DNA of 64,000 nucleotides from NCBI GenBank assembly GCA_018992685.1, contig JACVGT010000019.1, positions 32,001 through 96,000 of the forward strand. Reading direction: 5' to 3'. The position numbers were made by a program, and so were the translations under genes. Of the stretch, positions 1,496 to 26,178 are shown in pieces (position 1 is the stretch's first letter; each line of letters opens with the position of its first letter). The notes beneath the pieces were generated by a model, which worked only from the letters and a program-made list of their open reading frames with translations, had not been told where the DNA came from and did no database searches. This DNA comes from Theionarchaea archaeon. Lineage in GTDB: Archaea > Methanobacteriota_B > Thermococci > Methanofastidiosales > SZ-28-30.

Positions 1496-1540
1496 GTTAT
1501 CAACCTCCTCCTTTCAGCTTTCCTACTCTCGACTGGTTTC

Positions 1541-6361: not shown

Positions 6362-7338
6362 AACTTGGTCCCCTCCCTTTTGTGCCAGCACTCAACATAG
6401 TGATCGCCAATCCACTCTCCGTTTGGCTGTTCCTTTTCACAAACCTCTGTTGCAAAGTCACACCGAGGATGGAACCGGCATCCAGATGGAGGATAGATTA
6501 GATTGGGGACAACACCCTTGATAACACCCAATTTCTGTTTCTTCTCTGTCACCTTGGGTATCGCCTCATGAAGTGCGATAGTATAGGGGTGAAGTGGGGC
6601 ATGAAAGACAATGTCAACTTCTCCATACTCAACCAGCCGCCCAGCGTACATCACTCCCACATGATCAGACATCTCGGCAATGACACCAAGGTTATGCGTG
6701 ATGAGCAAGACTGTTGTGCCTAGCTCTCTCTTGAGGTTGTTTATCATGTCCAAAACCTGTGCCTGAACTGTCACGTCGAGATTTGTCGTGGGCTCGTCTG
6801 CTACCAGCATTTTGGGATTACATGAGAGAGCCATTGCAATCATGACCCGCTGCTTCATTCCTCCACTAAACTGATGTGGAAAGTCATCAACACGGGCATC
6901 AGGGTCGGGGATACCCACGAGATCTAACATTTCAATTGCTTTCTGTCTAGCTTCTTTTTTCCCAAGACCCTGGTGAAGTTCAATCACTTCTCTCAATTGA
7001 TTGTCCACCGTATATACGGGGTTAAGTGCACTCTGAGGATCCTGGAATATCATTGAAATGTCATTCCCTCTGATTTGCCTCATGTCGCTCTCAGAAAGAG
7101 CCAGGAGGTTCACACCTTCAAAGAGAATCTCTCCATCAATAATCTTCCCCGGAGGATCGGGAACAAGTCTGAGGACAGACAGGGCAGTGACAGTCTTTCC
7201 ACAACCAGATTCACCGACCAGCCCTAAGGTCTCTCCCTGCTCAATGTGAATATCGATTCCTTCCAACGCTCTTACGATGCCATCCTCTGTATAAAAGTAC
7301 GTTCTCAGTCCTTTAATTTCCAGTAGATTATCAGCCAA
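6358..7338 (-). CDS. dppD: Peptide ABC transporter ATPase (DppD/OppD)
   Basis: [22 protein letters not shown]; TTG start with GGTGA RBS. Confidence 0.95.
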
Positions 7339-7342
7339 AATA

Positions 7343-8269: not shown

Positions 8270-8284
8270 GAAATCACCTTTAGA

Positions 8285-9268: not shown

Positions 9269-9394
9269 ATCGCACATCCTCCTTTGTTTTGTTTAGAGCA
9301 AGTCTCCTCATGTCGGGGCTGTTCTTTCTTGTCCTCAGTCATTTCAACTCTCCCTCTTCAAAAAAGGGAAAAAGAGGGAAAAAATTTTGTTCTT

Positions 9395-11314
9395 CTAGTC
9401 TTTCTTCTTTACCATGTACCCAATGGCAAGTCCGACTATCAGGGCAACTATTCCAATTACAATCAGTGTCGTGGTGGACGTACCACCAGCTCCAGCTTCT
9501 CCGCCTTCTACCGTTACCTGTTTCTCAATGATGTAGTAGCGGTATCCTGCCGTGTCCATCAATTCTCGTGCCTTGGCCAGGTCATACGGGTCTGGTGCAA
9601 TGTTGGTGTTGAAGGCCCATGAGGGAACAGCAACAGGGTTCCGTCCGGGTACACCGTAGCCACCCAACAGGTTGTCCACAATTCCCTGTCTGTCAATACA
9701 GGAGGAAATGGCCTGTCTCACGTACTTGTTGGCCAGGTATGGGTTGCGGCAGTTGAAGTGCAGGTGCTGGTAGCCGAACTGCTCTGAAGTCCACAACTTG
9801 ATGCCGGGAGTAGCTTCGAGATCCTCACCAATGGCTGTCAAGTTGTAGTAGGTGTCCATCATGTCGATTTCGCCAGTTTCCAGGGCAACACGGGCTGCCT
9901 CTCTCTCGGGTATCAATTTCAGCACAAAGAAGTCGCATCCTGCTTCTGGGAGACCATACTTTGAACCCCAGTAGTTGGGATTCTTCTTCAACTTCCAGTA
10001 CTGGTCAGCTTCCCACGAGTCAAAGATGAAGGGTCCAGAACCAATGACGGTTTCTCCCCTGTTGACGTCAGACTCCATCCACTTGGTAGCAGCTTCTGCT
10101 CCTGTTATAGGAATATCACCATAGAGGTGCTTGGGCAGAATGTTGGTGTCACAGTATCTGAGCCAGGCAGCGTGGGGCATTCCGACATACACTCTCAGTG
10201 TGTACTTGTCAACGATTTCTGATCCACCATAGACATCTCTGAATGTTCCATATCCCTGGAAGGCAGTATCTGGGCTGACACAGGCATCAAAGGACCACTT
10301 GATATCTTCGCTTGTCATTTCCACACCATCGTGGAACATGATGCCTTCTCTGATCTTAATGTCGAAGTATTCTGGGAAGACTACAGGTTCAGCGAGCTTG
10401 GAACTGACATTACACTTGTTGACATCAGGGGCCATAGCCTCAATTGAAGCATCGTCCAGCATGCTGGGGGCAAACACAATAGTAGGTCCTTCTGTTGTAG
10501 AATCTGCCAGCAAGGGTGACATGTTCAGGTTATCGTCGTTCTGCCACAGTGTCTGGAAAATCTGCTGGTTGCAGTAGTATCCATACACTGAGTTCCATCT
10601 CCAGACCAGCATTCCCTCAACAGCTGCAGGTGTACCATAGACAATGGTGTCTTTTCCAGGAATTGACCAGGACGCAGCATCATAGTTCTGTGTCCACAGC
10701 AATCCACTGAATCCTTCAAAGGTGTCTATTGAGGCCCACATGTTGAGTGGGATGTACACCACACAGTACGGCTGTTCATCTGCAACAATCTCCTGGAATC
10801 TCCACAGGTATTCCTTTCTCTTTGCCTGATCAATTTCGACTCGTGCTTTAGCCAGCATCTCGTCAGCTTCCGGGCAGTACCAGAATGTCACGTTGTTACC
10901 TATGGGGGTCATTGCAGAAGAGTGGAATATGTCAAAGGGATCAGGGTCTACGCCCACTGACCAGCCGAACGAAGAAATGTCGAATCCATCTTCAGAATAG
11001 GATTTTCCGTAGTAGTTGTTGAACTCCCTGTTGATCAGGTCTCCGAACTCCAGCAACTTGAAGTCAGCCTGAATGCCGATCTTGGGCATCTCAAGGTTGA
11101 CAGCCTGGGTGTACTGCTCTCTGACCTTGTTCCCGATAGGAGCAATCTGCGTAATCGAAAAGAACGGTGGGTACTTGGAATAATCCTCAGTAAAGGGAAC
11201 CTTCGTGATCTCCTGTTCCTGAGCAATCGCAGTAGTTCCGAATAAAGAAAGTACCAAAGAAGTCAAGAGAACAATCGACAGCACCATTGAGACTTTTCTT
11301 GTTTTTACATTCAT
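9395..11314 (-). CDS. Family-5 solute-binding protein SBP1, circularly permuted, plain C-terminal TM anchor; first gene of the ABC operon
   Basis: Start MNVKTRK after AAAGGAGG; motif IREGIMFHDGVEMTSEDI lies mid-protein; tail TTTLIVIGIVALIVGLAIGYMVKKKD has no Cys. Confidence 0.92.
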   Translation of the reverse strand: MNVKTRKVSMVLSIVLLTSLVLSLFGTTAIAQEQEITKVPFTEDYSKYPPFFSITQIAPIGNKVREQYTQAVNLEMPKIGIQADFKLLEFGDLINREFNNYYGKSYSEDGFDISSFGWSVGVDPDPFDIFHSSAMTPIGNNVTFWYCPEADEMLAKARVEIDQAKRKEYLWRFQEIVADEQPYCVVYIPLNMWASIDTFEGFSGLLWTQNYDAASWSIPGKDTIVYGTPAAVEGMLVWRWNSVYGYYCNQQIFQTLWQNDDNLNMSPLLADSTTEGPTIVFAPSMLDDASIEAMAPDVNKCNVSSKLAEPVVFPEYFDIKIREGIMFHDGVEMTSEDIKWSFDACVSPDTAFQGYGTFRDVYGGSEIVDKYTLRVYVGMPHAAWLRYCDTNILPKHLYGDIPITGAEAATKWMESDVNRGETVIGSGPFIFDSWEADQYWKLKKNPNYWGSKYGLPEAGCDFFVLKLIPEREAARVALETGEIDMMDTYYNLTAIGEDLEATPGIKLWTSEQFGYQHLHFNCRNPYLANKYVRQAISSCIDRQGIVDNLLGGYGVPGRNPVAVPSWAFNTNIAPDPYDLAKARELMDTAGYRYYIIEKQVTVEGGEAGAGGTSTTTLIVIGIVALIVGLAIGYMVKKKD

Positions 11315-11363
11315 ATCTTTTCTACCTCCTTTGATCGGTATTGTATCCACGTACAGGGAAAGG

Positions 11364-11379
11364 CTTATAAACCTTTCGG
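11364..11379 (-). promoter_or_regulatory. BRE/TATA promoter of the SBP1 operon
   Basis: Minus strand CCGAAAGG TTTATAAG; implies a 5'UTR of about 30 nt. Confidence 0.75.
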
Positions 11380-11464
11380 TTTCAGTAGTATATACTATCT
11401 TAAGTCGTAGCTAAAGCCAATAGTAGCATGCTACATTATATAATAGCTATTACCTTAAATAGTA
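11374..11464. promoter_or_regulatory. Array of operator-like inverted repeats upstream of and abutting the SBP1 BRE
   Basis: TACTAT-cttaa-GTCGTA (11393-11409), TGCTAC-attat-ATAATA (11429-11445), TATTAC-cttaa-ATAGTA (11448-11464), half-site GTAGTA (11385-11390). Confidence 0.65.
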
Positions 11465-11563
11465 AATTGAAGATTCTGGATTGGCTGCTTTTTACCTGGG
11501 CGGGCCGAACTCGGGCTTTTGCAGATAATCAAAAAAGAAACGCCGAAAAAATGAGAAACAAAG

Positions 11564-11752
11564 TCAGAATACGATGACAACTCCCATTTTCTCCAACAAG
11601 AAATATATACAGATCAGAAAGATAACAATCAGCCCCAAAATGAACAGCAGGGTGACTTTCTCTTTCGAATTCTTGTAATCTCTAGCGAAAATACCAATCA
11701 GTAGCACATCGCACACAATCGCTACCAGGAGTAGCAAAGCCTGTACATTCAT
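11564..11752 (-). CDS. Small two-TM hypothetical protein
   Basis: AGGAGG RBS, two hydrophobic helices, T-rich stretch after the stop. Confidence 0.7.
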   Translation of the reverse strand: MNVQALLLLVAIVCDVLLIGIFARDYKNSKEKVTLLFILGLIVIFLICIYFLLEKMGVVIVF

Positions 11753-11883
11753 CTAATTCCTCCTTTTCTAATCAGCATTTCGTAAGTTTTCAGATGTGGT
11801 GGTGTGTCCTCGTCACGTCGACATAAATACTTTTGGATAGGGTTCCTGTGTTACATAATCAAATCGTACTAATACATCATTTA

Positions 11884-11913
11884 CAGCATAGTAGGAATTT
11901 TCTTACTATGCTG
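11884..11913. repeat. 13-bp inverted repeat
   Basis: CAGCATAGTAGGA-attt-TCTTACTATGCTG, one G-T pair. Confidence 0.7.
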
Positions 11914-11990
11914 CAACTTCTATCTTGAAGAAATGATTATCATAAGAGGATTTCGTATGCTTTTCTTTCACTGCACTGCGTGTGCAATCA

Positions 11991-12073
11991 TCCATTGTCA
12001 AGCATAATTCTCCCTTTCTTACCAGCATCTTGTTATGTTCTTTCCAATTTCTGGTCATAAAACCATCTGGTTT
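11991..12073 (-). mobile_element. IS5-family (IS903-like) transposase 5' remnant, copy 1
   Basis: 80/83 nt identical to 13655-13737; encodes MTRNWKEHNKMLVRKGELCLTMD, then homology stops. Confidence 0.75.
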
Positions 12074-12197
12074 TCTACAGTGACAATTCCTGGATGGACC
12101 ATCTCACAGAACAGGAAGAAGACTTTCCATTTGCGAGGAATTCAAGAAATTCTCTGGAAAAGCAAATCTTACTCTCCCTGTAGGACATCTCTCAGAG

Positions 12198-13133
12198 TCA
12201 GTACTGCCTTTCCAGTCTCATTATCTGTACAAAGTGCACGGCTACTAAAGTCAGTAGAGAAAGAACAAACACGATGAAAGTGTCAGAAATGATGTCATGT
12301 ATGTGGACAAAATTTGTGTCAATGCCTGTGTAGAGAATTTCGCCCGAGAAACTCGCTCTATCCAGTACGTGGAGGGTATCATTGAGGGCATACACGACTT
12401 CAGCGTCCATGATTGCTCCTGCAAAATCCTTCTGACTCTTGCGCACCTGGTAGTTATGATACGCTGTCTCCGCCATGAATATGTAGGACTCCGACAGGAC
12501 TTCACTATACGTATTTCTCAATGCGGCTTTCTCTGCATGATCTATAGTATTCTGGTAGCACTTGTCAAGAGGCAGTTCCTCCATAGTTTCAATAGAGGAG
12601 AACAATTCATTCAAGAATGCTTCATAGTGATCTGATTTCACAAAGTCGTCCCAGGAACTGGAATTTTCGCCACCATAATATTTCTGCAGTATTCTGCAGT
12701 ATTCTCCAGCATGACCTGAAATTCCTATTGCGTCAGGACCACAGGCCCACTTGTCACACACACGAAAATAGGCACCCAGAATCTTTGACTTGACCTCCAA
12801 TAGTGTACACTCACGAGCCTGCGTTCGGATTGTTCCACTGAAGAGTTTTTCTTCACTTTGAAGGTATTCGTGAAAATCCAGAAGATAGATGGAGTAGAGG
12901 GCACTTGTCTCTTTCTGGAAGTAATCAGAGAGCTCTTCTGGGTCATTTTTGTCAAGGGCTTCCCAATCTCTCTCTAGAATGTCTGAATTTTCTCTGACTA
13001 TCTCTTTCAGGTCAGATATGTTTTCTTCAATCTGTCCTTCGAATTGTTTCTGTCTATAGTAAGAGGTAGCCACCAGCCCTACAAGAAAAAGAACAATCCA
13101 AAGATAAATCAGCTCTTTTCGATTTTCTTTCAT
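12198..13133 (-). CDS. Hypothetical membrane protein with N- and C-terminal TM helices
   Basis: Long ORF; start MKENRK after GGAGG; no family recognised. Confidence 0.75.
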   Translation of the reverse strand: MKENRKELIYLWIVLFLVGLVATSYYRQKQFEGQIEENISDLKEIVRENSDILERDWEALDKNDPEELSDYFQKETSALYSIYLLDFHEYLQSEEKLFSGTIRTQARECTLLEVKSKILGAYFRVCDKWACGPDAIGISGHAGEYCRILQKYYGGENSSSWDDFVKSDHYEAFLNELFSSIETMEELPLDKCYQNTIDHAEKAALRNTYSEVLSESYIFMAETAYHNYQVRKSQKDFAGAIMDAEVVYALNDTLHVLDRASFSGEILYTGIDTNFVHIHDIISDTFIVFVLSLLTLVAVHFVQIMRLERQY

Positions 13134-13134
13134 A

Positions 13135-13509
13135 TTAGAACGTCTTCCTCCATGCATCTTTAAATATGCCACGTATCAACGACTCTATGACTTCAGTACA
13201 CATGTCTTTCCATGCATCATTTCTGATGAAACTTTTGGTAATAGTCAAATAAGTCCGGTTCTCTTTTTGTGAAAGATAATCGCTTAGAGCATATCCCATA
13301 AGATATCCATTCCCCCAGTCTTTGGCCTCATCATCAGACATTTCAAGACTCCGTGTGAAGTTATAAGCCTCCTTATAGTCACGTAGTCGCGGTGTTTGCG
13401 AACCAAATGCTCCTAAAGTAACTGATGCTGGTTGGCTAAAATCAAAAAGAAATCCTACAGCAGAGACAGTCTGCTGAGGTAAGTCCCTCTGTATACTGCG
13501 ACAACTTTC
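13135..13509 (-). pseudogene. 3' remnant of a gene truncated at the IS remnant
   Basis: Frame stays open upstream of the ORF-track start (IQRDLPQQTVSAVGFLFDF...) up to the transposase-fragment stop; its own stop abuts the next ATG. Confidence 0.5.
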
Positions 13510-13737
13510 TCAAAGTGCCTTTAACTGTCTATAGGACACGCTGAACACTGTCTTCGTCAGGGCAGTATATGCTATGAATTGAGGAAATGCAAAAGGGCTA
13601 CCTCGCTTGTTCACATTCATCTGCTGAAGTTCTTCATTCCAATATTCAATGAAATCCATTGTCAAGCATAATTCTCCCCTTCTTACCAGCATCTTGTTAT
13701 ATTCTTTCCAATTTCTGGCCATAAAACCATCTGGTTT
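13510..13737 (-). mobile_element. IS5-family (IS903-like) transposase N-terminal fragment, copy 2
   Basis: MARNWKEYNKMLVRRGE...KRGSPFAF...SYRQL is the typical N-terminus; DDE core absent. Confidence 0.8.
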
Positions 13738-13759
13738 CCCTATAGTATCCTTCTATTGG

Positions 13760-13785
13760 TTTATGCGTCAAACAAGGTATTTGAA
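13760..13785. repeat. 26-bp dispersed repeat, copy 1
   Basis: tttatgcgtcaaacaaggtatttgaa; 24/26 identical to 14746-14771. Confidence 0.65.
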
Positions 13786-13902
13786 GGCTAAATTGTACAA
13801 CACAGCAGATAGGGTTGAACAGCTAGAGTATGACCATCAGATTGGGGTAATCTTTATAAGGTATTGATAACCAACTCCCATGGTGATCTCATAAAACAGA
13901 TT

Positions 13903-14322
13903 ATGGCTCTACTGTGTTGCTTTCTGGTACTCGGCTGTACCATTGGTGTGAACCTTGATACACCTGAAAACACAGTGAACACATGGGTTCGATCGTACAA
14001 CGATCGGGATGTTGAGGGTATATATATAACACTGTCAAGAGCATACATCATGGCCAATGGCGGCGAGGAACGAGTGAAATCGATCATCGGGACCATGCTG
14101 GAAGAGGCTGAGGAATCAGAAATTTCGTTTACTGTGAAGGGGATTGGATTGCTTGCTTTGTCGACGGAACAGCCGGGATTGTCATCAGGCAGAACCATAT
14201 ATCTCGCGAGAATGGACAGGAAGTTTACAGAGGAAGGGGAGAAAAGAGTCGAAGAAGTCTTCTGGAATTTCGCTGTAGTAAAAGAAGACGACAAGTACAA
14301 GATCGAAGATTTCTGGGACTGA
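13903..14322 (+). CDS. Putative lipoprotein, possibly NTF2-like fold
   Basis: Lipobox-like FLVLGC; TPENTVNTWVRSYND and VVKEDDKYKI patterns; start codon uncertain. Confidence 0.65.
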   Translation: MALLCCFLVLGCTIGVNLDTPENTVNTWVRSYNDRDVEGIYITLSRAYIMANGGEERVKSIIGTMLEEAEESEISFTVKGIGLLALSTEQPGLSSGRTIYLARMDRKFTEEGEKRVEEVFWNFAVVKEDDKYKIEDFWD

Positions 14323-14745
14323 AAAGAGACGGATTTCTTATTCTTTTTGCACTTTCTTTCGCTGCCGTTATACGTCTCTACGCTTTCCACACATGGCCCA
14401 TATAGCATTTTAGGCAAGGCTGGTGCAGGAATGGTAAGCACGCATTAGGATTGCTATGCAGGTTCTGGAACAGGAGGTGCCTCGTGGTGTTCACAGACAG
14501 AACGCACTCCTTGTGCTTCTAACAAGACTACCAGAATCCACAGAGAGTCATATTTCGCGTGAAGGAATGAAAATGTGAATTTGAACCCTCAGTTACCAGT
14601 ACTCTCTTTCTCAGGTTCTCTAACCTCATTGTTGAGTCAAATTCCCTAACAGCTTGCTTCTCCCGTTTGACGTCCTCTCACCACGGTGCCTTTCAGATTT
14701 CTGGTCACACTAGTCTGGGTTCTCCGTGTCTAATTTCCCGACCAT

Positions 14746-14771
14746 TTTATGCTTCAAATAAGGTATTTGAA
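14746..14771. repeat. 26-bp dispersed repeat, copy 2, containing a perfect palindrome
   Basis: TTCAAATA-agg-TATTTGAA at 14753-14771. Confidence 0.65.
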
Positions 14772-14807
14772 TGAAAAATCGCGTAGTACACCACCAGAGC
14801 ACAAACC

Positions 14808-14834
14808 TTTAAAAGCTTACGACAACAGGTAGTA
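14808..14834 (+). promoter_or_regulatory. TATA box plus putative autoregulatory operator of the blaI-like gene
   Basis: TTTAAAAG at 14808-14815; TACGAC-aacag-GTAGTA at 14818-14834; ATG at 14838 (leaderless spacing). Confidence 0.7.
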
Positions 14835-14837
14835 GTA

Positions 14838-15224
14838 ATGAATATCAAAAGACTTGGTCCTCTAGAACGAACAATAATGGAAGTCTTCTGGGAGAAGAAA
14901 AAAGCTGATGCACGGGAGGTCTATTCAGAACTCAACAGAGAAAAACAAATCGCCTACACCACCATCAATACTACTCTCACCCGTCTTCACAAGAAGAAAT
15001 TGCTCAACAGAAAGCTGGTGAAGGGAAGAGGAGGATACCGTTATGTGTACACCATTGCCAAGTCAAAACCAAAATACATTGATCAGGTCATACGCTCTAC
15101 CATAGATGATCTCCTGATGCGGTTCGGAAATCGAACCATAAGTTACTTCTCAGAAAGTCTCAACCTGAATGAAGAGGATGTGGAGAAGCTAAGAGTTCGT
15201 CTGAAGGAGTTGTCTCATGAATGA
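14838..15224 (+). CDS. BlaI/MecI/CopY-family transcriptional repressor
   Basis: LGPLERTIMEVFW...AYTTINTTLTRLHKKKLL...YVY winged-HTH signature; overlaps the M56 gene. Confidence 0.9.
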   Translation: MNIKRLGPLERTIMEVFWEKKKADAREVYSELNREKQIAYTTINTTLTRLHKKKLLNRKLVKGRGGYRYVYTIAKSKPKYIDQVIRSTIDDLLMRFGNRTISYFSESLNLNEEDVEKLRVRLKELSHE

Positions 15225-16554
15225 GTGGCAGAATTTTGCGCTTGCGATTGTATTGATTGTGGTGGTACAATTCACCAACGAGGGCATCATTGCGCTACTG
15301 AAAGTGAGGAATGCCACCACTCGATTCCGTATTAGGCTCATTTCTCTTGTCTCCTGTTTTTTCGTGTTTTTGATTGTTCCGTTCAAGATCGTGGAACTCA
15401 CCATCCTGTCGGGAGAGATTTTTGTCGGCAGCAGTGAATCTTCCCAGATTGATGGCTGGGTGGCCAGATCTGCCACAATGACGTCGACCTATTCTGGGTT
15501 TGCACGGGCCAGCGTTGTTCTCCTCTTGATAGCTGTGTGCTGCTTTGTTGTCATGGTTCTGTTCGGCAAGCACATAACTGGTAGAGTATTTGGATGTGAG
15601 CCAGCAACAGATTCGAGGCTTCTGACCATTGTGAATCAAGTCTCCTCTGAACTGGGACTGTCCATCAAGCAGGTGATGGTGTGCAGAAAGAAATGTGACG
15701 CCTTTGTATATGGATACCCTCCTTTCCTAGCAGTGGGAAGAGACCTCCTCACTATGCTGGATGACAGTGAGCTCCGGATAGTCATCAGGCATGAATTGTA
15801 CCATGTCAAAGGTAAGGACACACTCCTGAAGCCATTTCTTGCCGCTCTGTGCATTGTCTTCTTATACAACCCCATGAGCTGGTTCCTGTATAGAAAAGTG
15901 TTTAATGACAGGGAGTGCTGCGCTGATCAGGCTTCTATCACCTGTTCTCAGGACACCAGGACATTTCTTTCCCTGCTGCTGAAATTCCACAGCCTTGCAA
16001 GTGGCATGCCGCACACGTTTGCTGTTCACTGGACGGGAGCCACTAACAGAATTGACTCACTCCTCTTTGCAGAAAAGACCCGGAAGATCCCTGTCTTCTT
16101 GTGTTTGTTCTTTACGGTCTCATCGCTTTTTGTGGGAGGTACTCAGCTCTTTGAGAACCAATTTGTGGAAATCAACAGCTCTATTCCGTTTGATTCAGAA
16201 ACATATGGTCCGGAAGCTGATTTCTCAGACTATTTCTATGATATTCCTGTAGCAGAATGGTACAACAGAAAACGATCGGAAAATGAAGTGAGTATCCCAC
16301 TACAGGAAAGAGACCTCAGAAAACTCCTGTCTGCAGACGAACTTGCCAAGGGAGAAATCACCATAAGAATGGCCACGCTTCCCTTGGGAAGGAGACCTCA
16401 GTTGTTTGGCAGAAACGATATTGTGGATGGCAACTGTAACCTCATCATTGAAATAGAAGAGGGCAAACTATTCGTTTCCATAAGACAGAACAATGGACCT
16501 GGAACGTCCCAGAAGGAAGCCGTTCTCAGTGGAGGACCTGCCACAGCAATGTAG
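15217..16554 (+). CDS. M56-family (BlaR1/MecR1-like) membrane metallopeptidase with an unrecognised C-terminal domain
   Basis: TM helices, HELYH, NPMSW, RECCAD; no penicillin-binding domain recognised. Confidence 0.85.
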   Translation: MNEWQNFALAIVLIVVVQFTNEGIIALLKVRNATTRFRIRLISLVSCFFVFLIVPFKIVELTILSGEIFVGSSESSQIDGWVARSATMTSTYSGFARASVVLLLIAVCCFVVMVLFGKHITGRVFGCEPATDSRLLTIVNQVSSELGLSIKQVMVCRKKCDAFVYGYPPFLAVGRDLLTMLDDSELRIVIRHELYHVKGKDTLLKPFLAALCIVFLYNPMSWFLYRKVFNDRECCADQASITCSQDTRTFLSLLLKFHSLASGMPHTFAVHWTGATNRIDSLLFAEKTRKIPVFLCLFFTVSSLFVGGTQLFENQFVEINSSIPFDSETYGPEADFSDYFYDIPVAEWYNRKRSENEVSIPLQERDLRKLLSADELAKGEITIRMATLPLGRRPQLFGRNDIVDGNCNLIIEIEEGKLFVSIRQNNGPGTSQKEAVLSGGPATAM

Positions 16555-16758
16555 GACTGTACTGAACGTGCAGGGAGAGTCACGGTATTCTAAAGGTATC
16601 CAGGGGTGTCTCGCACGCTCATGTGGCAATCCAGCACCTGGAATTTTCCTTGAATATATTGTTATATGTGTCCTCAGTCAGTCCCTGTGTGCCTAAGACC
16701 TGACGGTGGGACCTTCTCAATCAAAAAGCATTTATGTGGAATTATGTGAGAGACCACA

Positions 16759-18465: not shown

Positions 18466-19253
18466 TTCAGCAGACCATGTTTATTCGAAAAGAATCCTTT
18501 CTTCACTCTTTGGATCCCAGAACAAAGCTATTCTTATCCATTGGCCTGTTTCTCGTGGGTGTCCTGTTCACTGATTACAGAGTGCTGATGGCCCTCTTTG
18601 CAGGCGAGGTTATCATTCTCAGAGTGGCAGCCAGAATTCCTTTTTCGAAGTTATTCCCGTACCTGAAACTGATTCTTCCTCTTGTGGTTATGGCACTGCT
18701 GATATGGCCCCTCTTCCAGAGAACGGGGACAGTTCTGGTATCCTACTGGAAGGTTATCATCACGAAGGAGGGAATCCAGATGGGAATTGCCATGTCCTTG
18801 AGACTGCTGTCTTTGATCGTGGCTACGTATTTGCTCCTCATGACCACCGAGCAGAGAGATCTGGTTCTTGCTCTCGTTAAATCCGGATTGCGGTATGATT
18901 TCGGGTTAATGTTGGCCATTGCTCTGAGCAAGGTTCCTGCTCTGGCAGGGATTGCCTTGACCATCATGGATGCGCAGAAGGCACGAGGGCTCGAACTCGA
19001 AAAGGGAAATATCGTTGAAAAAGTGAGAAAGTACATACCTATTCTGATTCCATTGATTATTTCAGCTATAAGGCTGGCTGAAGCGTTGTCCATTGCAATT
19101 GATTCTCGAGCATTTGGGAGAGGGAGGCGCACCTACCTGAGAGAGCTTCACTTCACGATGAAAGATGCGCTGGTCACTGGTATGGCTGTGGTGGTGATTT
19201 CAGTATGTATGGGAATGCGTGCTGCAGGATATGGTGTTATGGAATTGCCGTGA
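18462..19253 (+). CDS. ecfT: ECF transporter T component
   Basis: LHSLDPRTK, AQKARG, AIDSRAF; ATG overlaps the upstream stop. Confidence 0.92.
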   Translation: MIQQTMFIRKESFLHSLDPRTKLFLSIGLFLVGVLFTDYRVLMALFAGEVIILRVAARIPFSKLFPYLKLILPLVVMALLIWPLFQRTGTVLVSYWKVIITKEGIQMGIAMSLRLLSLIVATYLLLMTTEQRDLVLALVKSGLRYDFGLMLAIALSKVPALAGIALTIMDAQKARGLELEKGNIVEKVRKYIPILIPLIISAIRLAEALSIAIDSRAFGRGRRTYLRELHFTMKDALVTGMAVVVISVCMGMRAAGYGVMELP

Positions 19254-20059
19254 TGGCTGTCGGAACCGTATTGATGTCGGCTGCACTGGAAAACCCGGTG
19301 GAGGGGTGGGCTGTCCTCATGGAAACCAATGATTTCCCTGGAGGGTACACTGATCTCCCTCTGGGCTTCGTGGATGTTGAACGAATGGAGACCCTGCTCC
19401 AGTACCACGGGTGGCAGAAATCACACATGCTACTAAGAAGAGATACTATTACGACGCAAGCAGTGAAGGAGGGTATTGCATACCTGCAGAAAGCAGATCA
19501 GAATGACATTGCTTTGTTCTACATTTGCTCTCACGGAGGATATCTGAGGCATGATCTCCAATGGAACAGTCTCATGCCTCCGCTCTGGGAGCGTGTTACC
19601 AGTGAAAAGAGAGTATTGATTATAGATTCCTGCTATGCAGGTTCCTTTCTGCCGGAAAGCGAGAGACCATACATCGGGATTGGCTCAGTTTCGGCTGACG
19701 AGCTTGGGTGGGCAGGCCTGCCAGAAGAGAACCTGCCTATTACCGGGTTCGTGTTCACCTACTACTTCTGCCAGTCCACCCTGGGAGTATCAGTTGAAGA
19801 GGGATTTGGAAGGGCCAGTCCCCAGGTACAGCAGTACATGCAGGATGTGGTCTATCCGGCTTTCAAGGAAGTCTATCCTCCCGAGCACTACAATGTCTAT
19901 GATCCTCATCCTGTGTTGAAGGATTCGTATCCAGGTGAGCTCTCCCTGTGGGTTGATGAGGGTGGAGTTTCTCTCTCTCAGGTTCTGGCTGTCCTGATGC
20001 TTCTCCTCCTGGGAATCATCCTTGCCCTGGATAGAAAAGGAATCTGTTCATGTGACTAG
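19205..20059 (+). CDS. Secreted/anchored caspase-like (clan CD, C14-like) peptidase
   Basis: His-Cys dyad motifs YICSHGG and IIDSCYAG; N-terminal hydrophobic segment and C-terminal TM. Confidence 0.75.
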   Translation: MYGNACCRIWCYGIAVMAVGTVLMSAALENPVEGWAVLMETNDFPGGYTDLPLGFVDVERMETLLQYHGWQKSHMLLRRDTITTQAVKEGIAYLQKADQNDIALFYICSHGGYLRHDLQWNSLMPPLWERVTSEKRVLIIDSCYAGSFLPESERPYIGIGSVSADELGWAGLPEENLPITGFVFTYYFCQSTLGVSVEEGFGRASPQVQQYMQDVVYPAFKEVYPPEHYNVYDPHPVLKDSYPGELSLWVDEGGVSLSQVLAVLMLLLLGIILALDRKGICSCD

Positions 20060-20166
20060 GAAATGTGTAATGAAAGGGACGCTATACGGGGAAGTGAAGG
20101 TTTTCATCCTTTGTTCCTCTGCGTGCCGGCCAAAAGCTTTATATTTCAACAGAAGCAATCTCTCCT

Positions 20167-21210
20167 GTGGAATCGACAACTGATATTCTGGAGAAACTCA
20201 TAGAAGAAGAACAGAGAATAAGGCAGAAAGCAGAAGAACTGGGACTCCATGTCGGAAAAGAGTCACTAGAAGAGGCTAAGAAGCCCTTCAGGGCCAAAGA
20301 AGGAATTCCCAGGACAGAACTCACTGAACGAGAGATGTCTCGGCTGCTGGCCGAAACGAGGGATATTCTTGACATCTACAGCTTGGATTATGTTTCTGAG
20401 CATTTTGATGAGGCTAAGAATCTGTATTACGCGCTGAAGGACAAACCCTTCTCGCCTGATTCTCTCATTGGATCACGAATCGTGCAGAATATCCAGGAGT
20501 TGAAGGAACGAATCGATGCAGTGGAAGAACAGGAATCTCCAACAAAACCACTGGAAGAACTGCTTTCTGATTCGAAGAGGCTTCTTGATTCTCTGGATTC
20601 ACTTGACGCAGTTCAGGCGAAACGGCGCTATGCTGATCTGCTGAAGAGACAGCAGGATGCGCCCAAGAATGTGGATCAGCCACTTGAAGTAGAAATCGAC
20701 GAGTACCTGCTGGAAATTGGGAAACGAATTCAGCGAACAGAAAAAAAGACATCTGAAGAAATTGGAGAAGAGCTTCTGGAAGAAATCAGCACGTTGATTG
20801 GATCCAAGAGTTTTGATCCTGAAGGATACAACAGGATTGCCAGAAAATTCCAGGAAATAGCAGATGATCTTCCTGAAGATCTCAAAGTGAAAATAAGAGA
20901 CCGCATACGCGAGTCCTTTGCCAAGATGAAGGATCTCGAACAAAAGGAACACGTTGAAGAACGAATACGGGAAGAACGTGCCAAGAAGTTCTACTGGGAT
21001 TCATTCGCTCAGGAGGTGGAACAACTGAAGGCCGATCTGGAGCGAGCAACACCTGGAGAGTTTTTCAGGCTCTACGATATCTACAATCAATTGCTGGACT
21101 CACTGGAACACGCAGATCTATCAGATGTTCATGCTGCCCAGATTGAGCGGGTAAAATCAATGATAGATCAGTGTTACTACATGCTGGAAGAACTCAGATC
21201 ACGAGCATGA
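20167..21210 (+). CDS. Acidic alpha-helical/coiled-coil hypothetical protein
   Basis: 347-aa E/K/L-rich ORF; TATA-like TTTATAT about 25 nt upstream. Confidence 0.75.
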   Translation: MESTTDILEKLIEEEQRIRQKAEELGLHVGKESLEEAKKPFRAKEGIPRTELTEREMSRLLAETRDILDIYSLDYVSEHFDEAKNLYYALKDKPFSPDSLIGSRIVQNIQELKERIDAVEEQESPTKPLEELLSDSKRLLDSLDSLDAVQAKRRYADLLKRQQDAPKNVDQPLEVEIDEYLLEIGKRIQRTEKKTSEEIGEELLEEISTLIGSKSFDPEGYNRIARKFQEIADDLPEDLKVKIRDRIRESFAKMKDLEQKEHVEERIREERAKKFYWDSFAQEVEQLKADLERATPGEFFRLYDIYNQLLDSLEHADLSDVHAAQIERVKSMIDQCYYMLEELRSRA

Positions 21211-21214
21211 TACC

Positions 21215-21997
21215 CTATTTGGGGAGTCGTCCCAGTTCCACCACTCCTTTGGAAACAATGCGCTGTACCGTTGTTCTGGATCCGATCTTCAGGCTGCCAT
21301 CACACATGACTTTCTGAAGAACGCTGTCAGATCCCACGTAGATATCTCCTTTACAGTATACATCTTCTTTTACTTCACAGAAATTCCCTATTTCCAGCTG
21401 GACTTCTATGTTCACCGGCGAATTCATAATATTTCTGTCTCCAAGAGATGCATCCTTACCTTTTATAGAACCCTTGAACTCACACTCGGCTTTGCTCTTC
21501 ACCGTTGAAGCCACCACATCCCCATACACCATATTTTTGCTACCAAGGTGGACTTCTTCTCCTGCTTCAATATTCCCTTTTATAATGACTCCATCTCCGA
21601 GGTGGATGCTGCGGCTGGTTTTCAGCCCTCCTGTAAGAACCAGATCATCAGAGAGGCTAATGTCTGAGTCTCTGGCCACAATGGCAAAGGTTTTCAGGGA
21701 AATCTCATCCTTTTTCTGCTGTATTACCTGTTGAAGTTCGGATATTTCAAGATTCTTTTCTTCAATAATCTGTTTCAGCTGGCGTTCAGTTTCTGCAAAA
21801 TTTTCCACCTTGTCCAGGAGAGCCTGGTTATCCTCAGTCAGCCTTTCGGCTACCTCTCGTAACTTGGACACTCCGCCGTATTCCTTCCTGTAGGTTTCCA
21901 ACTCCCTGGTGATACGGGAGTTTTCGTCCCGCAATTCGGTGGCCATCCGTCTTAGAGATTCTATAACCTCATCTTTTCCTTTGTCAAAGAGCCCCAT
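21215..21997 (-). CDS. Coiled-coil plus bactofilin-like beta-helix protein
   Basis: Start MGLFDKGK after GGAGG; heptad region, then repeats IKGNIEA, VYGDVVA, FKGSIKG, VKEDVYC. Confidence 0.7.
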   Translation of the reverse strand: MGLFDKGKDEVIESLRRMATELRDENSRITRELETYRKEYGGVSKLREVAERLTEDNQALLDKVENFAETERQLKQIIEEKNLEISELQQVIQQKKDEISLKTFAIVARDSDISLSDDLVLTGGLKTSRSIHLGDGVIIKGNIEAGEEVHLGSKNMVYGDVVASTVKSKAECEFKGSIKGKDASLGDRNIMNSPVNIEVQLEIGNFCEVKEDVYCKGDIYVGSDSVLQKVMCDGSLKIGSRTTVQRIVSKGVVELGRLPK

Positions 21998-22157
21998 GCT
22001 GTTCAACCTCCATTCTTTTTTTCTACAGCATATATATAGCTTTTTCCATTGCCATTGCCGGACTGGTGAAGACCACATCCATTGTCAAGTCAGGCTCTGT
22101 TCTTCATACGTGGCTGAGCAGAAAAGTCGTTTTCTTTCGCCAATGCGAAAATAAAGT

Positions 22158-22619
22158 TCACATTGAGGATTTTCTCTCAGTCAGCTCGAACAAGCAGTAG
22201 CTATCTCCGGCAGCCTGACAGGAGGTCTCCCTGTACATGATGTCTTCTTTACTGTAATATCTGGAAACCAGCCCCTCGAAAAACCCAGCCAGAAAATGAC
22301 ACACGGGGTCATTACTTTCCGCATAGCCAGAAGCAATCGGAGAATCAGTAACCTGGAACTGAAATTCTTCAGGATGAAAGGTAGCCCTCACAAAGCCAGT
22401 GGCTTCCAGCTCGGCCAAAAGATCCTGGATGGTGGCGCCTTCATCTTCTGATTGCATGATTTCCATGTACTTGTCGCCAAATTCCTTTCCTGCAGAGTAG
22501 AGAACTTTGGCCGCAGAGGGCCCAATGGAATCCTCCAGCGTTTTCTGGATTTTCATGAAAATGCTGTTAAGCACCACTAGCTTCCTCTTTTTTTCCACCG
22601 GCAGCAATTCTTTCATCAT
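22158..22619 (-). CDS. V4R-domain protein
   Basis: LYSAGKEFG, PVCHFLAGFFEG, ETSCQAAGDSYCLF. Confidence 0.88.
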   Translation of the reverse strand: MMKELLPVEKKRKLVVLNSIFMKIQKTLEDSIGPSAAKVLYSAGKEFGDKYMEIMQSEDEGATIQDLLAELEATGFVRATFHPEEFQFQVTDSPIASGYAESNDPVCHFLAGFFEGLVSRYYSKEDIMYRETSCQAAGDSYCLFELTERKSSM

Positions 22620-22742
22620 ATATCCTTTCAATCAGGACTTTATAAAGGTATAGGAGGCGAGCAAAGAGGTAGTAGACCTGCCTTCTTGCTGACATTTCAA
22701 GATCTGCTGCTCCGGTGTCTGCCATCACGCTGAGGAGCCACA

Positions 22743-23537
22743 CTACGAGCCAAACCAGGCATCTAGCCTCCTCTGCCCAGGCTGGGCCTTCCTGTACGGG
22801 ATGTTCAGAAGGTCCTTCAACATTCGTGCGTTGCTGATTGCCTGCCCTCGGGGGTGATTATTGAACTGGAGATACAAAGTCTCGGTTGAGAGACGTATTT
22901 CTTGCACTTTGGGTACCCACTCCTTCAATTCTTCTTCTGAGTATTGATAGTCATACCAATGCGATGGGTTCCTTCCATGCCATCTAACATATCCAAGATC
23001 TGATGTGATTCGTACGAGAGGTTCCATTTTCACAGAATCTGTCACAACAAAGGCGGCGTGGTCATCTCTGAGAAAGGAAACGTCAATTCTCGAGTCCCAG
23101 GAGGTGTGGCGGAACTCTACCGCAAACCGCACATTGTCAGGTAGAAAGTCCAAGAACTCCTTCAGGTTATCTTCATACTCTGTAGAGAACTTTGGAGGCA
23201 ATTGAATGAGGAAACAGCCCAGCTTTCCTGAATCTATGAGAGGAAACATCAAAGAATAGAATTCCTTGAACACCGGTTCTGAATTCTTGAGAAATCTCTT
23301 GTGAGTAATCTCTTTGGGGATCTTTGCGGTGAAGACAAAATCATCAGGTACCTTCTTGTTCCAGGAAATGACCGCGTACTTATTGGGTAGGGCATAGAAA
23401 GTGGAGTTAATCTCTACCAGATTGAATTCCCTTGCATAAAACTCTAACATCTTTCCCTTCTCAATGCCTTCAGGGTAAAACGGGCCAATCCAATCATCAT
23501 AGCTCCAGCCACTCGTTCCTATGTATAAGGTTCCCAT
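22743..23537 (-). CDS. DUF72 (YecE-like) TIM-barrel protein
   Basis: IGTSGWSY, VEINSTFY, AVEFRH, YVRWHGR, FNNH. Confidence 0.92.
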   Translation of the reverse strand: MGTLYIGTSGWSYDDWIGPFYPEGIEKGKMLEFYAREFNLVEINSTFYALPNKYAVISWNKKVPDDFVFTAKIPKEITHKRFLKNSEPVFKEFYSLMFPLIDSGKLGCFLIQLPPKFSTEYEDNLKEFLDFLPDNVRFAVEFRHTSWDSRIDVSFLRDDHAAFVVTDSVKMEPLVRITSDLGYVRWHGRNPSHWYDYQYSEEELKEWVPKVQEIRLSTETLYLQFNNHPRGQAISNARMLKDLLNIPYRKAQPGQRRLDAWFGS

Positions 23538-23720
23538 AGTAGGAGTTCTTCTGATACCAAAAAAATGTTACGGTTCCTGTGCTGTAATGAGCCCCTGTGA
23601 TACTTCTGCTCCTGTTCTGCTGAGCCCCCATATCGATGCAAGGCCTCACATCACACATCTTTTGTTCCCACATCGAAGGGACGTACTTCCAGCATCCGAG
23701 CTCAATCATCCACGTGTCAA

Positions 23721-23798
23721 CCGAAAGTCTTATAAGTAGTAGTTATTATAATAACAAGTAGCTACTACTAAAAGTAGTATCTACTACGGAAAATCGGA
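23721..23798 (+). promoter_or_regulatory. BRE/TATA promoter of SBP2 followed by tandem operator-like repeats
   Basis: CCGAAAGT CTTATAAG; TACTAC-taaaa-GTAGTA (23763-23779); TACTAC-ggaaa-ATCGGA (23782-23798). Confidence 0.72.
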
Positions 23799-23799
23799 A

Positions 23800-23903
23800 C
23801 TCCAATACCGTCTGCTGGTTGAAGATGTCGGCCTCCTTGGATCGGTATTGCAGACACTGAACCCGATCAACATCACCTCCAGCAGATGGTATACAGAATG
23901 GAG
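23800..23903 (+). ncRNA. Structured 5' leader RNA of SBP2 with a bulged anti-SD/antisense segment
   Basis: Stems 23805-23818/23879-23892, 23824-23828/23870-23874, 23840-23845/23863-23868; homologous to the SBP3 leader with compensatory changes. Confidence 0.7.
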
Positions 23904-23921
23904 ACCAAAGGAGGAAGAAAA

Positions 23922-25811
23922 ATGAACACAAGAAAGATCTCAGTCGTATTGTCTGCCGTGTTACTTGCTTCTTTAACTCTATCCCTATTCGGAACCAGTA
24001 CTGTTGCACAAGAACAGCAGTGGAAAAAAGTGCCAACTACTGAAGACTATTCCAATTACCCCGCATTCTTTTCGATCACGCAGATTGCCCCCATTGGGAA
24101 CAAGGTTAGGGAACAGTATACACAGGCAGCCAACCTCGAAATGAGAAAAATCGGCATAGGGGCTGACTTCAGAATGCTGGAGTTCGGAGACCTGATCAAC
24201 AGGGAATTCAACAACTACTATGGCAGCACATTTGCTGAAGATGGATTCGACATTTCTTCATTCGGCTGGTCAGTGGGAGTAGACCCCGATCCCTTTGACA
24301 GTTTCCACTCTTCTGCAATGACCCCCATAGGTAACAACATTACATTCTGGTACTGCCCGGAAGCTGATGAGATGCTCTCTCTCGCACGAGTTGAACTTGA
24401 CCAGCAAGCCAGAAAGGAATACCTGTGGAGATTCCAGGAGATTGTTGCGGATGAAAAGCCCTACTGTGTGGTGTATGTGCCACTGCTCATCTGGGCCTCC
24501 ACAGATCAACTGGAAGGCTTTAATTCACTGATGTGGCAGCAGAACTTTGATGCTGTAACCTGGTCAATTCCAGGAAAAGACACCGTTGTCTATGGTACAC
24601 CCGCAGCTGTCGAGGGTATGCTGCCCTGGAGATGGAACTCAGTGTATGGACACTATCTTCACAACCAGATATTTGAGACATTGTGGACCGTTGCTCCAGA
24701 CCTCACCATTGAATCAAGAATTGCTGACTCTGCAACAGAAGGACCTTCAATCGTATTTGCCCCTAGCACTCTTGATGATGCTTCAATTGAGGCTCTCGGA
24801 CCTGATGTCAAGAAGTGTGTGGTGAACACCAAACTCGCAGGTCCTGTTGTGTTCCCCGAATACTACGACATCAAAATCAAAGAAGGCATCATGTTCCACG
24901 ATGGCGTGGAGATGACCAGTGAAGATGTCAAGTGGTCAATGGATGCCTGTGTCAGCGCAGACACCGCCTTCCAGGGATGGGGTACCTTCAGAGATGTATA
25001 TTCCAGCTCAGAAATCCTTGACAAGTACACACTGAGAGTGTATGTCGGGATGCCCCACGCAGCATGGGTACAGTATTGTAATCCATATGTATTGCCCAAG
25101 CATATCTATGGTGGCATTCCTATAACAGGAGCAGAAGCTGCCACCAGCTGGATGGAATCTGACATCAACAGAGGAGACACTGTCATTGGTTCAGGACCCT
25201 TCATGTTTGATTCCTGGGAAGCTGACCAGTTCTGGAAGATGAAGAAGACACCTGACTACTGGGGTTCTGCATATGGATATCTTGAAGCAGGATGCGACTT
25301 CCTGATACTGAAATTGATACCCGAGAGAGAGGCAGCCCGTGTTGCCCTGGAAACTGGAGAAATTGACATCATGTGCTGCTACTACCAGCTCGGAGCAATT
25401 GCTCAGGACCTGGAAGCTACCCCCGGCCTAGTGTTGTGGACCACAGAAGACTTCGGCTACCAGCACCTGCACTTCAACTGCCGCAACCCGTACCTTGCCA
25501 ACAAGTACGTGAGACAGGCCATTTCCTCCTGTATTGACAGACAGGGAATTGTGGACAAGTTGCTGGGTGGTTATGGTGTGCCTGGTGCCAACCCTGTTGC
25601 CGTTCCCTCGTGGGCCTTCAACACCAACATTGCACCAGACCCATACGATCTGGACAAGGCACGAGAGTTGATGGACACGGCAGGATATCGCTACTACGTC
25701 CTAGAAAAGACGGTGAGCACAGGCGGAGAAGAGGAAGCTGGAGGCGGATTCTGTCTGGGAACCCTGTTTATAGCCCTTATGAAGACTAATCATCTATTCA
25801 GGAGAGAGTGA
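23922..25811 (+). CDS. Orphan family-5 solute-binding protein SBP2, circularly permuted, CLGT tail with shortened hydrophobic segment
   Basis: Start MNTRK after AAAGGAGG; close paralog of SBP1 and SBP3; ends GGFCLGTLFIALMKTNHLFRRE. Confidence 0.92.
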   Translation: MNTRKISVVLSAVLLASLTLSLFGTSTVAQEQQWKKVPTTEDYSNYPAFFSITQIAPIGNKVREQYTQAANLEMRKIGIGADFRMLEFGDLINREFNNYYGSTFAEDGFDISSFGWSVGVDPDPFDSFHSSAMTPIGNNITFWYCPEADEMLSLARVELDQQARKEYLWRFQEIVADEKPYCVVYVPLLIWASTDQLEGFNSLMWQQNFDAVTWSIPGKDTVVYGTPAAVEGMLPWRWNSVYGHYLHNQIFETLWTVAPDLTIESRIADSATEGPSIVFAPSTLDDASIEALGPDVKKCVVNTKLAGPVVFPEYYDIKIKEGIMFHDGVEMTSEDVKWSMDACVSADTAFQGWGTFRDVYSSSEILDKYTLRVYVGMPHAAWVQYCNPYVLPKHIYGGIPITGAEAATSWMESDINRGDTVIGSGPFMFDSWEADQFWKMKKTPDYWGSAYGYLEAGCDFLILKLIPEREAARVALETGEIDIMCCYYQLGAIAQDLEATPGLVLWTTEDFGYQHLHFNCRNPYLANKYVRQAISSCIDRQGIVDKLLGGYGVPGANPVAVPSWAFNTNIAPDPYDLDKARELMDTAGYRYYVLEKTVSTGGEEEAGGGFCLGTLFIALMKTNHLFRRE

Positions 25812-25988
25812 CACTATTTGAAATCTCCTGATTGAGCCAAAAATCCCATAAAGATTTTATCCTTCAACCTAAGAACTCAACCTGTCAACATTTCTTATCC
25901 AGTATTACCAATAGTGTCATGACATATGCACCTTTCATCCCACTACCATAGCAGCAAGTAGCTCCGGGAGAAAGAACATTAATTCCAA

Positions 25989-26056
25989 GCGAAAGTTTTA
26001 TAAAGCACAGTAACTACTAAATTCAAGTAGTTACTATTTTAAATAGTATCTACAAC
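25989..26056 (+). promoter_or_regulatory. BRE/TATA promoter of SBP3 followed by operator-like repeats
   Basis: GCGAAAGT TTTATAAA; TACTAT-tttaa-ATAGTA (26032-26048); half-site TACAAC (26051-26056); also AGTAACTACT-N7-AGTAGTTACT (26009-26035). Confidence 0.72.
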
Positions 26057-26064
26057 TGAGACAA

Positions 26065-26153
26065 TCCCGGACCGTTCACTGGATGAAGATGTCACCTCCT
26101 TTGATCGGTACTCTACATTCGATCCGACATCTCATCTGGTGGATGGTGCGGGA
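26065..26153 (+). ncRNA. Structured 5' leader RNA of SBP3 with a bulged anti-SD/antisense segment
   Basis: Stems 26065-26069/26149-26153, 26071-26086/26132-26147 (4 G-U pairs), 26088-26093/26126-26131, 26103-26107/26120-26124; bulge ACCUCCUUU. Confidence 0.72.
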
Positions 26154-26178
26154 AATGGAGACTAAAGGAGGATAAAAA

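Follow-up and report, generated by a model that had tools for sequence, protein, structure and literature searches.

We report that two orphan genes for family-5 solute-binding proteins (SBP) in an uncultured archaeal lineage (Theionarchaea archaeon) have long, structured leaders with an exposed anti-Shine-Dalgarno (anti-SD) loop, and that this loop is complementary to the start region of a third, operon-linked paralog. The stretch analysed, hereafter the window, comprises 64,000 nucleotides (nt) and corresponds to positions 32001-96000 of contig C15 in genome G000, the assembly of which has 3,026,495 bases in 45 contigs and 46.7% G+C. In the window, SBP1 is the first gene of an operon that also codes for OppB/C-type permeases and OppD/F-type ATPases; these permease and ATPase genes adjoin SBP1 alone, and none is present beside the orphans SBP2 and SBP3 (Table 1). 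Judged from the sequence, the orphan-gene leaders might mask the SBP1 ribosome-binding site (RBS) in trans, a reading that we put forward tentatively and to which we give slightly less than an even chance. For comparison we used 34 species genomes of the same order, among them a sister genome from the same genus (G001).

The complementarity had been pointed out in a preliminary description of this DNA, and all its coordinates and letters proved exact. Specifically, on the minus strand the SBP1 leader reads TACAATACCGATCAAAGGAGGTAGAAAAGAT directly before the ATG at 11314. The plus-strand sequence ACCTCCTTTGATCGGTA at 26094-26110, in the SBP3 leader, is identical to the plus strand at 11324-11340 and is thereby complementary to the SBP1 mRNA at 17 of 17 positions, and CCTCCTTGGATCGGTATTGCA at 23832-23852, in the SBP2 leader, differs from the plus strand at 11325-11345 in two of 21 positions (a 19/21 complement). 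With up to two mismatches allowed, the 17-mer has three matches in the window (11324, 26094 and, with two mismatches, 23831) compared to a mean of 0.01 in shuffled sequences; none of 100 shuffles reached three, which rules out chance as the cause of these matches. Moreover, the motif CCTCCTT[TG]GATCGGTA occurs at three sites in the whole genome, each located directly upstream of a family-5 SBP paralog, and sites of these three kinds recur in the sister genome.

Looser searches added only candidates that we rejected. At up to three mismatches, a 19-mer gave four further matches in G000 and G001 taken together, and these look like chance: two are situated at corresponding places in the two genomes within a long open reading frame (ORF), and the surroundings of the other two read, by eye, like coding sequence (CDS). 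A degenerate 19-mer retrieved 78 stretches from a collection of genome contigs. Three are on two Theionarchaea archaeon records, a further one (L051) lies in a tight ORF cluster and therefore looks like chance, and the remaining 74 were taken for chance because approximately 280 chance matches are estimated for 16 fixed bases in that collection. The three DNA copies in the window are direct repeats on the plus strand, such that recombination between them would delete the intervening DNA; a promoter swap by this route was therefore rejected.

The SBP2 and SBP3 leaders are predicted to fold into long hairpins (Table 1), and in neither case was any of 200 shuffled sequences equally stable, whereas the SBP1 leader alone is unstructured (-2.9 kcal/mol, z 0.28). 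According to the preliminary description the CCUCCUU seed sits in a bulge, and in both leaders we find it in an asymmetric internal loop, as CCUCCUU(U), next to a GAUCGG that constitutes the 5' arm of a small apical hairpin; the complementarity to SBP1 extends from the seed into this arm and its loop (GAUCGGUA(UUG)). Opening the 7-nt seed costs 0.0-1.6 kcal/mol in all four leaders of this kind, i.e. those of SBP2, of SBP3 in both genomes, and of SBP4, a fourth paralog present in the sister genome, and opening of the 17 nt costs 5.3-9.2 kcal/mol.

Hybrid energies show that the loops fit SBP1 better than their own RBS, again in keeping with the preliminary description. For the four loops and the SBP1 5' untranslated regions (5'UTR) of the two genomes (eight loop-SBP1 comparisons) the energies range between -30.7 and -36.9 kcal/mol, as compared to -16.2 to -20.7 kcal/mol for a loop with its own start. 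We also scanned 11,571 candidate start regions, defined as an SD-like motif plus a start codon whose frame stays open for 80 or more codons, and added opening energies for the 60 best hybrids. With both loops SBP1 ranked first, at -16.7 vs -13.6 and -19.0 vs -16.1 kcal/mol for the next target. The complementarity to the start region of this distant mRNA is thus extended and specific, as would be called for in trans masking of an RBS. No small subunit rRNA gene is present in the assembly and the anti-SD of the 16S rRNA 3' end can therefore not be read from it.

The SBP4 loop behaves in the same way. Of its 22 core positions, 20 form Watson-Crick pairs and one a G-U pair with the SBP1 5'UTR (read by eye), and its CUA pairs with the UAG after the SBP1 SD, which the RBS of SBP4 itself lacks. 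Furthermore, the SD region of SBP4 has drifted (AAGUGGAGG, AAGTGGAGG) while the loop stayed SBP1-like, giving -16.2 kcal/mol for its own duplex vs -33.2 kcal/mol with SBP1; cis pairing is therefore weakest of all in SBP4. Over 12 nt the SBP4 loop is, in addition, fully complementary to the GACCAAAGGAGG block in SBP2 and in SBP3 of the sister genome, so cross-talk among the orphans is possible.

Leaders that sequester the SD in cis are familiar from translational riboswitches, RNA thermometers and pseudoknot operators, and the orphan leaders resemble them in having a structured 5' leader with an anti-SD upstream of their own gene. The preliminary description had accordingly named, as its alternative, a cis anti-SD derived from an old inverted duplication. 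In this alternative the leader would regulate only the translation of the orphan itself: the CCUCCUU(U) would form a loop-to-tail pseudoknot with its own SD, to which a protein, a ligand or temperature might lend stability, and the SBP1 match would be the leftover of a local inverted copy of an ancestral SBP1-like RBS region, from which the orphans have since diverged. The pairing and conservation data weaken it and we consider it unlikely, yet it is a serious rival. Anti-SD and SD are separated by only ~70 nt on one RNA and can form ~9 base pairs (bp) plus 2 (by eye), with a hybrid energy at the own start of -16 to -21 kcal/mol; however, the pairing requires a pseudoknot across a ~20-bp stem with a ~13-nt linker, and in nested folds, which leave pseudoknots unscored, the anti-SD is free of its own SD both in the minimum free energy (MFE) structure and in the ensemble (probability of being unpaired mostly 0.86-1.0). 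The RBS blocks are positionally homologous in all paralogs, and the outgroup leader L003 has a GCCUCC upstream of GGAGGC, a possible cis pair, but in SBP4 the drift of the own SD is uncompensated, i.e. loop and own SD have not co-evolved there. Likewise, the counterpart of the A (or CUA) directly preceding CCUCC is the U (or UAG) behind the SBP1 SD and not the orphans' own GGAGGA; the extension beyond the SD fits the UTR of another gene. A search of Rfam (E up to 1, window positions 9000-29000, both strands) gave no matches, which distinguishes these leaders further from the known cis-acting families. As to origin, a local inverted duplication would be a simpler source of a hairpin arm than a copy from a gene 12 kb away.

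Comparison with the relatives shows how narrowly the element is distributed. The SBP subfamily was found in five of the 34 genomes and on one metagenome contig, and among the 34 genomes the long structured leader is restricted to G000 (SBP2 and SBP3) and G001 (the SBP3 orthologue and SBP4, the latter with an MFS transporter gene and a TPR gene after it). Distant homologues (L003, L004, L005 and L010) have shorter leaders without the motif; a metagenome scan with the SBP alignment yielded one locus, L010, whose leader is short and lacks the motif. When the four leaders were combined into a covariance model, exactly these four were recovered in the 34 genomes (E 1e-25 to 1e-36), and the only matches beyond them were the antisense of the two SBP1 leaders (E 0.015) and then noise (E of at least 0.026). 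Aligning the four leaders with RNAalifold gave 23 consensus pairs, nine of which have compensatory changes. Maximum-likelihood analysis groups the orphans into a single clade, (SBP4,(SBP2,SBP3)), with support 99/98, and SBP1, which retains the ancestral operon context, is placed outside this clade, unresolved with respect to the operon-linked outgroups. Since the leader is absent outside the four and the orphans are monophyletic, it has a single origin, in the common ancestor of these genes.

In G001 the SBP3 orthologue is located directly after a DUF72 gene (locus L022 on contig G001:C116, 16954-18490) and SBP2 is absent at the syntenic place (compare window positions 22743-26179), and SBP4 is on another contig than the SBP3 orthologue.

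Within the leaders, conservation is concentrated in the loop core. Between SBP4 and the SBP3 orthologues the stems are identical at only 8-19 of 39-41 positions, which is near random, whereas 16-18 of the 22 nt of the core are identical. The 3' arm of the apical hairpin is wholly different in SBP4 and its 5' arm has two changed positions; that the 5' arm was kept and the 3' arm replaced suggests that the 5' arm is constrained in its sequence and not in structure alone, which also speaks against a purely cis-acting hairpin. Upstream of SBP1, 274 of 334 positions (82%) are identical in G000 and G001 and the second-longest identical run (32 nt) is the 5'UTR; upstream of SBP3 the corresponding figures are 260 of 334 (78%) and the longest identical run (39 nt) reaches exactly to the last position of the 17-nt core. 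Across the leaders two of the loop changes keep a wobble pair and two are mismatches. These data bear on the possibility that the hairpin is a functionless relic that merely stabilises the orphan mRNAs or is tolerated, with the SBP1 match decaying. SBP2 and SBP4 each have one mismatch and one wobble in the first 17 nt, and SBP3 of G000 has recently lost three positions of the extension, as decay would predict; a neutral 22-mer, however, should have become randomised like the remainder of the SBP4 and SBP3 leaders, and the proteins have diverged to 72-77% identity while the core has stayed similar across lineages and the seed single-stranded in all four folds. We therefore hold a relic to be improbable.

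In the orphans, the RBS block (GA[CU][CU]AAAGGAGG) is a positional homologue of the SBP1 block (GAUCAAAGGAGG), with 4-5 positions differing, and the loop could therefore plausibly have originated from a local inverted copy of an RBS of the SBP1 type. If the pairing is functional, this would suggest that such regulators may originate by gene duplication followed by a local inverted copy of the RBS region. The local copy does not explain, though, why both partners kept their match when the stems and the RBS of the orphans themselves diverged. Derivation of the leader from a deleted long SBP1 leader was also considered; the alignment, however, matches the SBP1 UTR with the RBS block of the orphans and not with the apical hairpin.

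Upstream of all homologues a near-identical B recognition element (BRE) and TATA box, CGAAAG-N-TTATAA, is present. Its distance from the downstream ATG is ~190 nt in SBP2 and SBP3, for which leaders of ~155-165 nt are accordingly predicted, and the predicted SBP1 5'UTR (~27 nt) is almost coextensive with the complementary stretch. The promoters bear on another alternative, in which the shared 20-mer is a site, read as double-stranded DNA or as RNA by a protein of an SBP regulon, with the strand being irrelevant and without any RNA-RNA pairing. The same 17-22 bp are indeed present as DNA near all these promoters, which share other elements resembling protein sites (TAGTA/TACTA, enriched 30-60 times), but the 20-mer is non-palindromic and its position relative to the promoter differs greatly, at ~+1 to +20 in SBP1 vs ~+70 to +90 in the orphans. 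It also contains the SD or the anti-SD and is placed exactly in the exposed loop of an RNA hairpin with covarying stems, and we see little prospect that a protein site is the right explanation.

Contigs from four metatranscriptome runs of one study hold parts of the region and provide evidence for transcripts that bear the element. One contig (26049-26231, run X3) comprises the SBP3 leader and 53 nt of the CDS and, given its 13 differences from the window, comes from a related strain; another (23833-24204, run X2) joins the element to the SBP2 CDS. Orphan transcripts that start downstream of the element would, according to the preliminary description, have spoken against its reading; these contigs show transcripts that include it. 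The coding regions of SBP1 and SBP3 are also covered by RNA contigs, and the zero cover over long neighbouring stretches (e.g. 11604-14858) argues against DNA carry-over. The antisense element is thus transcribed as well as accessible, as trans masking would call for. Two gene variants are represented in the metatranscriptomes (26049-26231, 27349-27746 and 9674-9868), one near-identical to the window and one ~90-93% identical and often deeper, and the latter indicates that a co-occurring related strain carries the same leader.

Taken as a mechanism, trans masking would operate as follows. The orphan mRNAs (SBP2 and SBP3, and in G001 SBP3 and SBP4) have a conserved and very stable leader hairpin of ~90-110 nt that would act as a built-in antisense regulator, and its exposed seed CCUCCUU(U) would nucleate on the SD of the short, unstructured SBP1 5'UTR. 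The duplex would then zip over 17-22 nt, covering the 5'UTR from ~+1 to just past the SD, and ribosome binding would be blocked at SBP1 only, with the permease and ATPase cistrons, the first of which starts 117 nt after the SBP1 stop, retaining start sites of their own. Transcription of an orphan gene could in this way swap SBP1 for another binding protein. G000 has a single closely related complete permease/ATPase set, which the three binding proteins might share. That transcribing SBP2 or SBP3 silences SBP1 in trans had been proposed in the preliminary description; the target rank, the transcripts and the conserved loop core support it in part, and we tentatively infer from the sequence that the duplex forms in the cell, that it represses SBP1 and that one transporter serves all three. 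A more elaborate scheme, which we rate as rather unlikely, is an RNA-only specificity switch: pairing of an orphan loop with the operon 5'UTR (and of the SBP4 loop with the RBS of other orphans, 12 pairs) would both stop SBP1 translation and free the orphan's own SD, such that the orphan would be made only in the presence of the operon mRNA and would replace SBP1.

Several observations weigh against trans masking. The system is present in only two genomes and these do not differ in the SBP1 target, hence no covariation is seen and evolution does not demonstrate the pairing, and the homology of the RBS blocks means that part of the complementarity is expected by descent alone. In SBP3 of G000, three of four adjacent positions of the distal extension have changed recently relative to the orthologue (TTGC to CTCT), which cuts the match from 20 to 17 nt and implies that this extension is not tightly constrained. 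The lead of SBP1 over the next predicted target, only ~3 kcal/mol, is modest. Moreover, in a cruder seeded genome-wide duplex scan without accessibility SBP1 came fifth for the SBP3 loop, outranked by two other sites and by the antisense strand of the loop itself, which took up two rows, and it was not among the 12 matches listed for the SBP2 loop. The ~9-bp loop-to-SD pairing in cis described above is possible. The start sites of SBP1, SBP2 and SBP3 are predictions from TATA spacing alone, and the metatranscriptome contigs do not show RNA ends, strand or level. Finally, the presence of SBP1 and SBP3 RNA in the same samples, which we list here, is neutral as to translational control.

If the pairing is functional, an archaeon would pick the binding protein of an importer by direct antisense pairing between paralogous mRNAs, without a dedicated small-RNA gene. 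The RBS-masking RNAs of archaea, few of which are known, would then extend to mRNA leaders, and the 17-22 nt duplex would be a concrete, mutable object for studying trans-acting archaeal 5'UTRs. Were the specificity switch true, the cross-regulating paralog network would be the first case of an archaeal full-length mRNA leader acting in trans.

The preliminary description knew of no described archaeal leader system of this type. In the literature searched, which covered few subscription journals, we likewise found no archaeal mRNA whose leader acts in trans on a paralog, but archaeal RBS-masking small RNAs and bacterial trans-acting 5'UTRs are known. The nearest archaeal cases are Methanosarcina mazei sRNA154 and sRNA41, trans-encoded small RNAs reported to mask RBSs through their loops (PMC5867862, PMC12612679). 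As in the orphan leaders, the anti-RBS is in a loop of a stable RNA, and the reported targets include cistrons of polycistronic mRNAs with a block of initiation being proposed. Unlike sRNA41 and sRNA154, which are free-standing, intergenic and have several targets, the element in the window belongs to an mRNA 5' leader, has a paralog as target and a much longer match (17-22 nt), and is known from sequence.

In bacteria, reported trans-acting leaders or mRNAs include the Listeria riboswitches SreA and SreB, which act in trans on prfA (PMC12612679), as well as Rli51 in the mpl 5'UTR and the hly-prsA2 mRNA-mRNA interaction (PMC11394854, PMC8722363). These likewise involve a leader attached to or derived from an mRNA that base-pairs with another mRNA and alters its expression, but these cases are bacterial, the targets are not known to be paralogs of the host gene and the riboswitches work via terminated leader fragments. 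Similarly, GcvB and AbcR1 are reported as bacterial small RNAs that repress binding-protein cistrons of ATP-binding cassette (ABC) transporters (PMC9988348, PMC4152367). They share with the arrangement proposed here post-transcriptional control at the start region of a binding protein belonging to an Opp/Dpp-type or amino-acid ABC transporter; in contrast to the paralog-specific mRNA leaders, they are Hfq-dependent, with many targets and short seeds. Thus, the new part, if real, would be the combination of an mRNA leader and a paralog target, RBS-masking antisense RNA in itself being already known.

Table 1. Features of the SBP1, SBP2 and SBP3 loci (window coordinates)
Feature	Position	Strand	Evidence
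Two permease genes (8285-9277, 7343-8269) and two ATPase genes (6358-7338, 5393-6391), downstream of SBP1	5393..9277	-	BPD_transp_1, OppC_N, ABC_tran, oligo_HPY domains
SBP1, family-5 solute-binding protein, 639 aa, first gene of the operon	9395..11314	-	ORF; PF00496 E 7.7e-60
Proposed target in the SBP1 5'UTR, beginning near the predicted start site and ending just beyond the SD (GGAGG 11329-11325)	11322..11345	-	unique loop complement
SBP1 proximal BRE/TATA (CGAAAGGTTTATAAG)	11364..11378	-	spacing; predicted start ~11341, 5'UTR ~27 nt
SBP2 BRE/TATA (CGAAAGTCTTATAAG)	23722..23736	+	consensus comparison; predicted start ~23759
Long hairpin, SBP2 leader	23796..23906	+	MFE -42.6 kcal/mol, z -3.66; covariance-model E 1.3e-29
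SBP2 loop core GCCTCCTTGGATCGGTATTGCA, anti-SD seed and extension	23831..23852	+	hybrid -32.2 with SBP1 vs -18.1 with own start; seed opening 1.2 kcal/mol
SBP2, orphan family-5 binding protein, 629 aa	23922..25811	+	PF00496 E 1.5e-56; 77% identity to SBP1
SBP3 BRE/TATA (CGAAAGTTTTATAAA)	25990..26004	+	identical in sister genome; predicted start ~26027
Long hairpin, SBP3 leader	26065..26153	+	MFE -47.7 kcal/mol, z -4.08; covariance-model E 1.5e-35
SBP3 loop core ACCTCCTTTGATCGGTACTCTA, first 17 nt perfectly complementary to SBP1 5'UTR	26094..26115	+	hybrid -34.0 with SBP1 vs -20.7 with own; seed opening 0.0 kcal/mol
SBP3, orphan family-5 binding protein, 633 aa	26179..28080	+	PF00496 E 1.1e-60; next genes (MscS, DUF432) on opposite strand

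The SBP1, SBP2 and SBP3 proteins are 76-81% identical and all three score above the cut-off of Pfam for PF00496 (SBP_bac_5; E 1e-56 to 1e-60). This domain spans only residues ~315-590; the N-terminal ~310 residues (1-314 in SBP3, window positions 26179-27120) have no Pfam domain and are highly conserved between the paralogs. All three also have a hydrophobic, signal-like N-terminal segment and a hydrophobic C-terminal tail.

The promoters and leaders of these genes have two further characteristics. Clusters of TAGTA/TACTA palindromes (GTAGTA-TC-TACTAC, TAGTATATACTA) are located at window positions 11385-11470 (-), 23737-23790 (+) and 26010-26060 (+), and such palindromes are also present upstream of the L003, L004, L005 and L010 homologues. 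Their density near the SBP promoters is 2.9-6.2 per 100 nt vs 0.10 genome-wide, i.e. 30-60 times higher, and the SBP2 promoter is the sole 80-nt window of the genome with at least five elements. In SBP1 the clusters precede the proximal TATA box, but in the orphans and the outgroup genera they follow the TATA box. This arrangement suggests a single transcription factor that acts in opposite ways at these promoters or, alternatively, a further SBP1 promoter in a distal position. Frames started by ATG cross the loop core in both orphans (window positions 26083-26175 and 23825-23860), with 30 codons in SBP3, where a TAA stop is positioned between the SD and the ATG, and 11 codons in SBP2. In the sister genome the SBP3 frame enters the CDS and SBP4 has no ATG; as neither frame nor length is conserved, an upstream ORF in the orphan leaders was rejected as probably not real.

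With respect to transporter genes elsewhere in G000, a lone OppB-like gene (G000:C1:298186-299163) is 69% identical to the first permease of the SBP1 operon and has its neighbours on the other strand. A 944-aa fusion (G000:C4:1298-4132) combines a beta-propeller-like N-terminal part (weak Vgb_lyase/SGL matches) with an OppB-like permease, and its propeller part resembles a 486-aa protein encoded at window positions 3931-5391, directly downstream of the SBP1 operon. Such solitary OppB-like paralogs could be alternative partners for the orphan binding proteins. A second, more distant Opp-type set is located at window positions 524-3204 on the minus strand (G000:C15:32524-35204); its permease is 38% identical to that of the SBP1 operon and a gene for a PF00496 protein is adjacent. 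Finally, window positions 14838-20059 on the plus strand encode, in an archaeon, a pair consisting of a BlaI-like repressor (Penicillinase_R) and a BlaR1/M56-M48 peptidase, with genes for a double ABC ATPase, a CbiQ-type ECF component and a caspase-domain protein after the pair.

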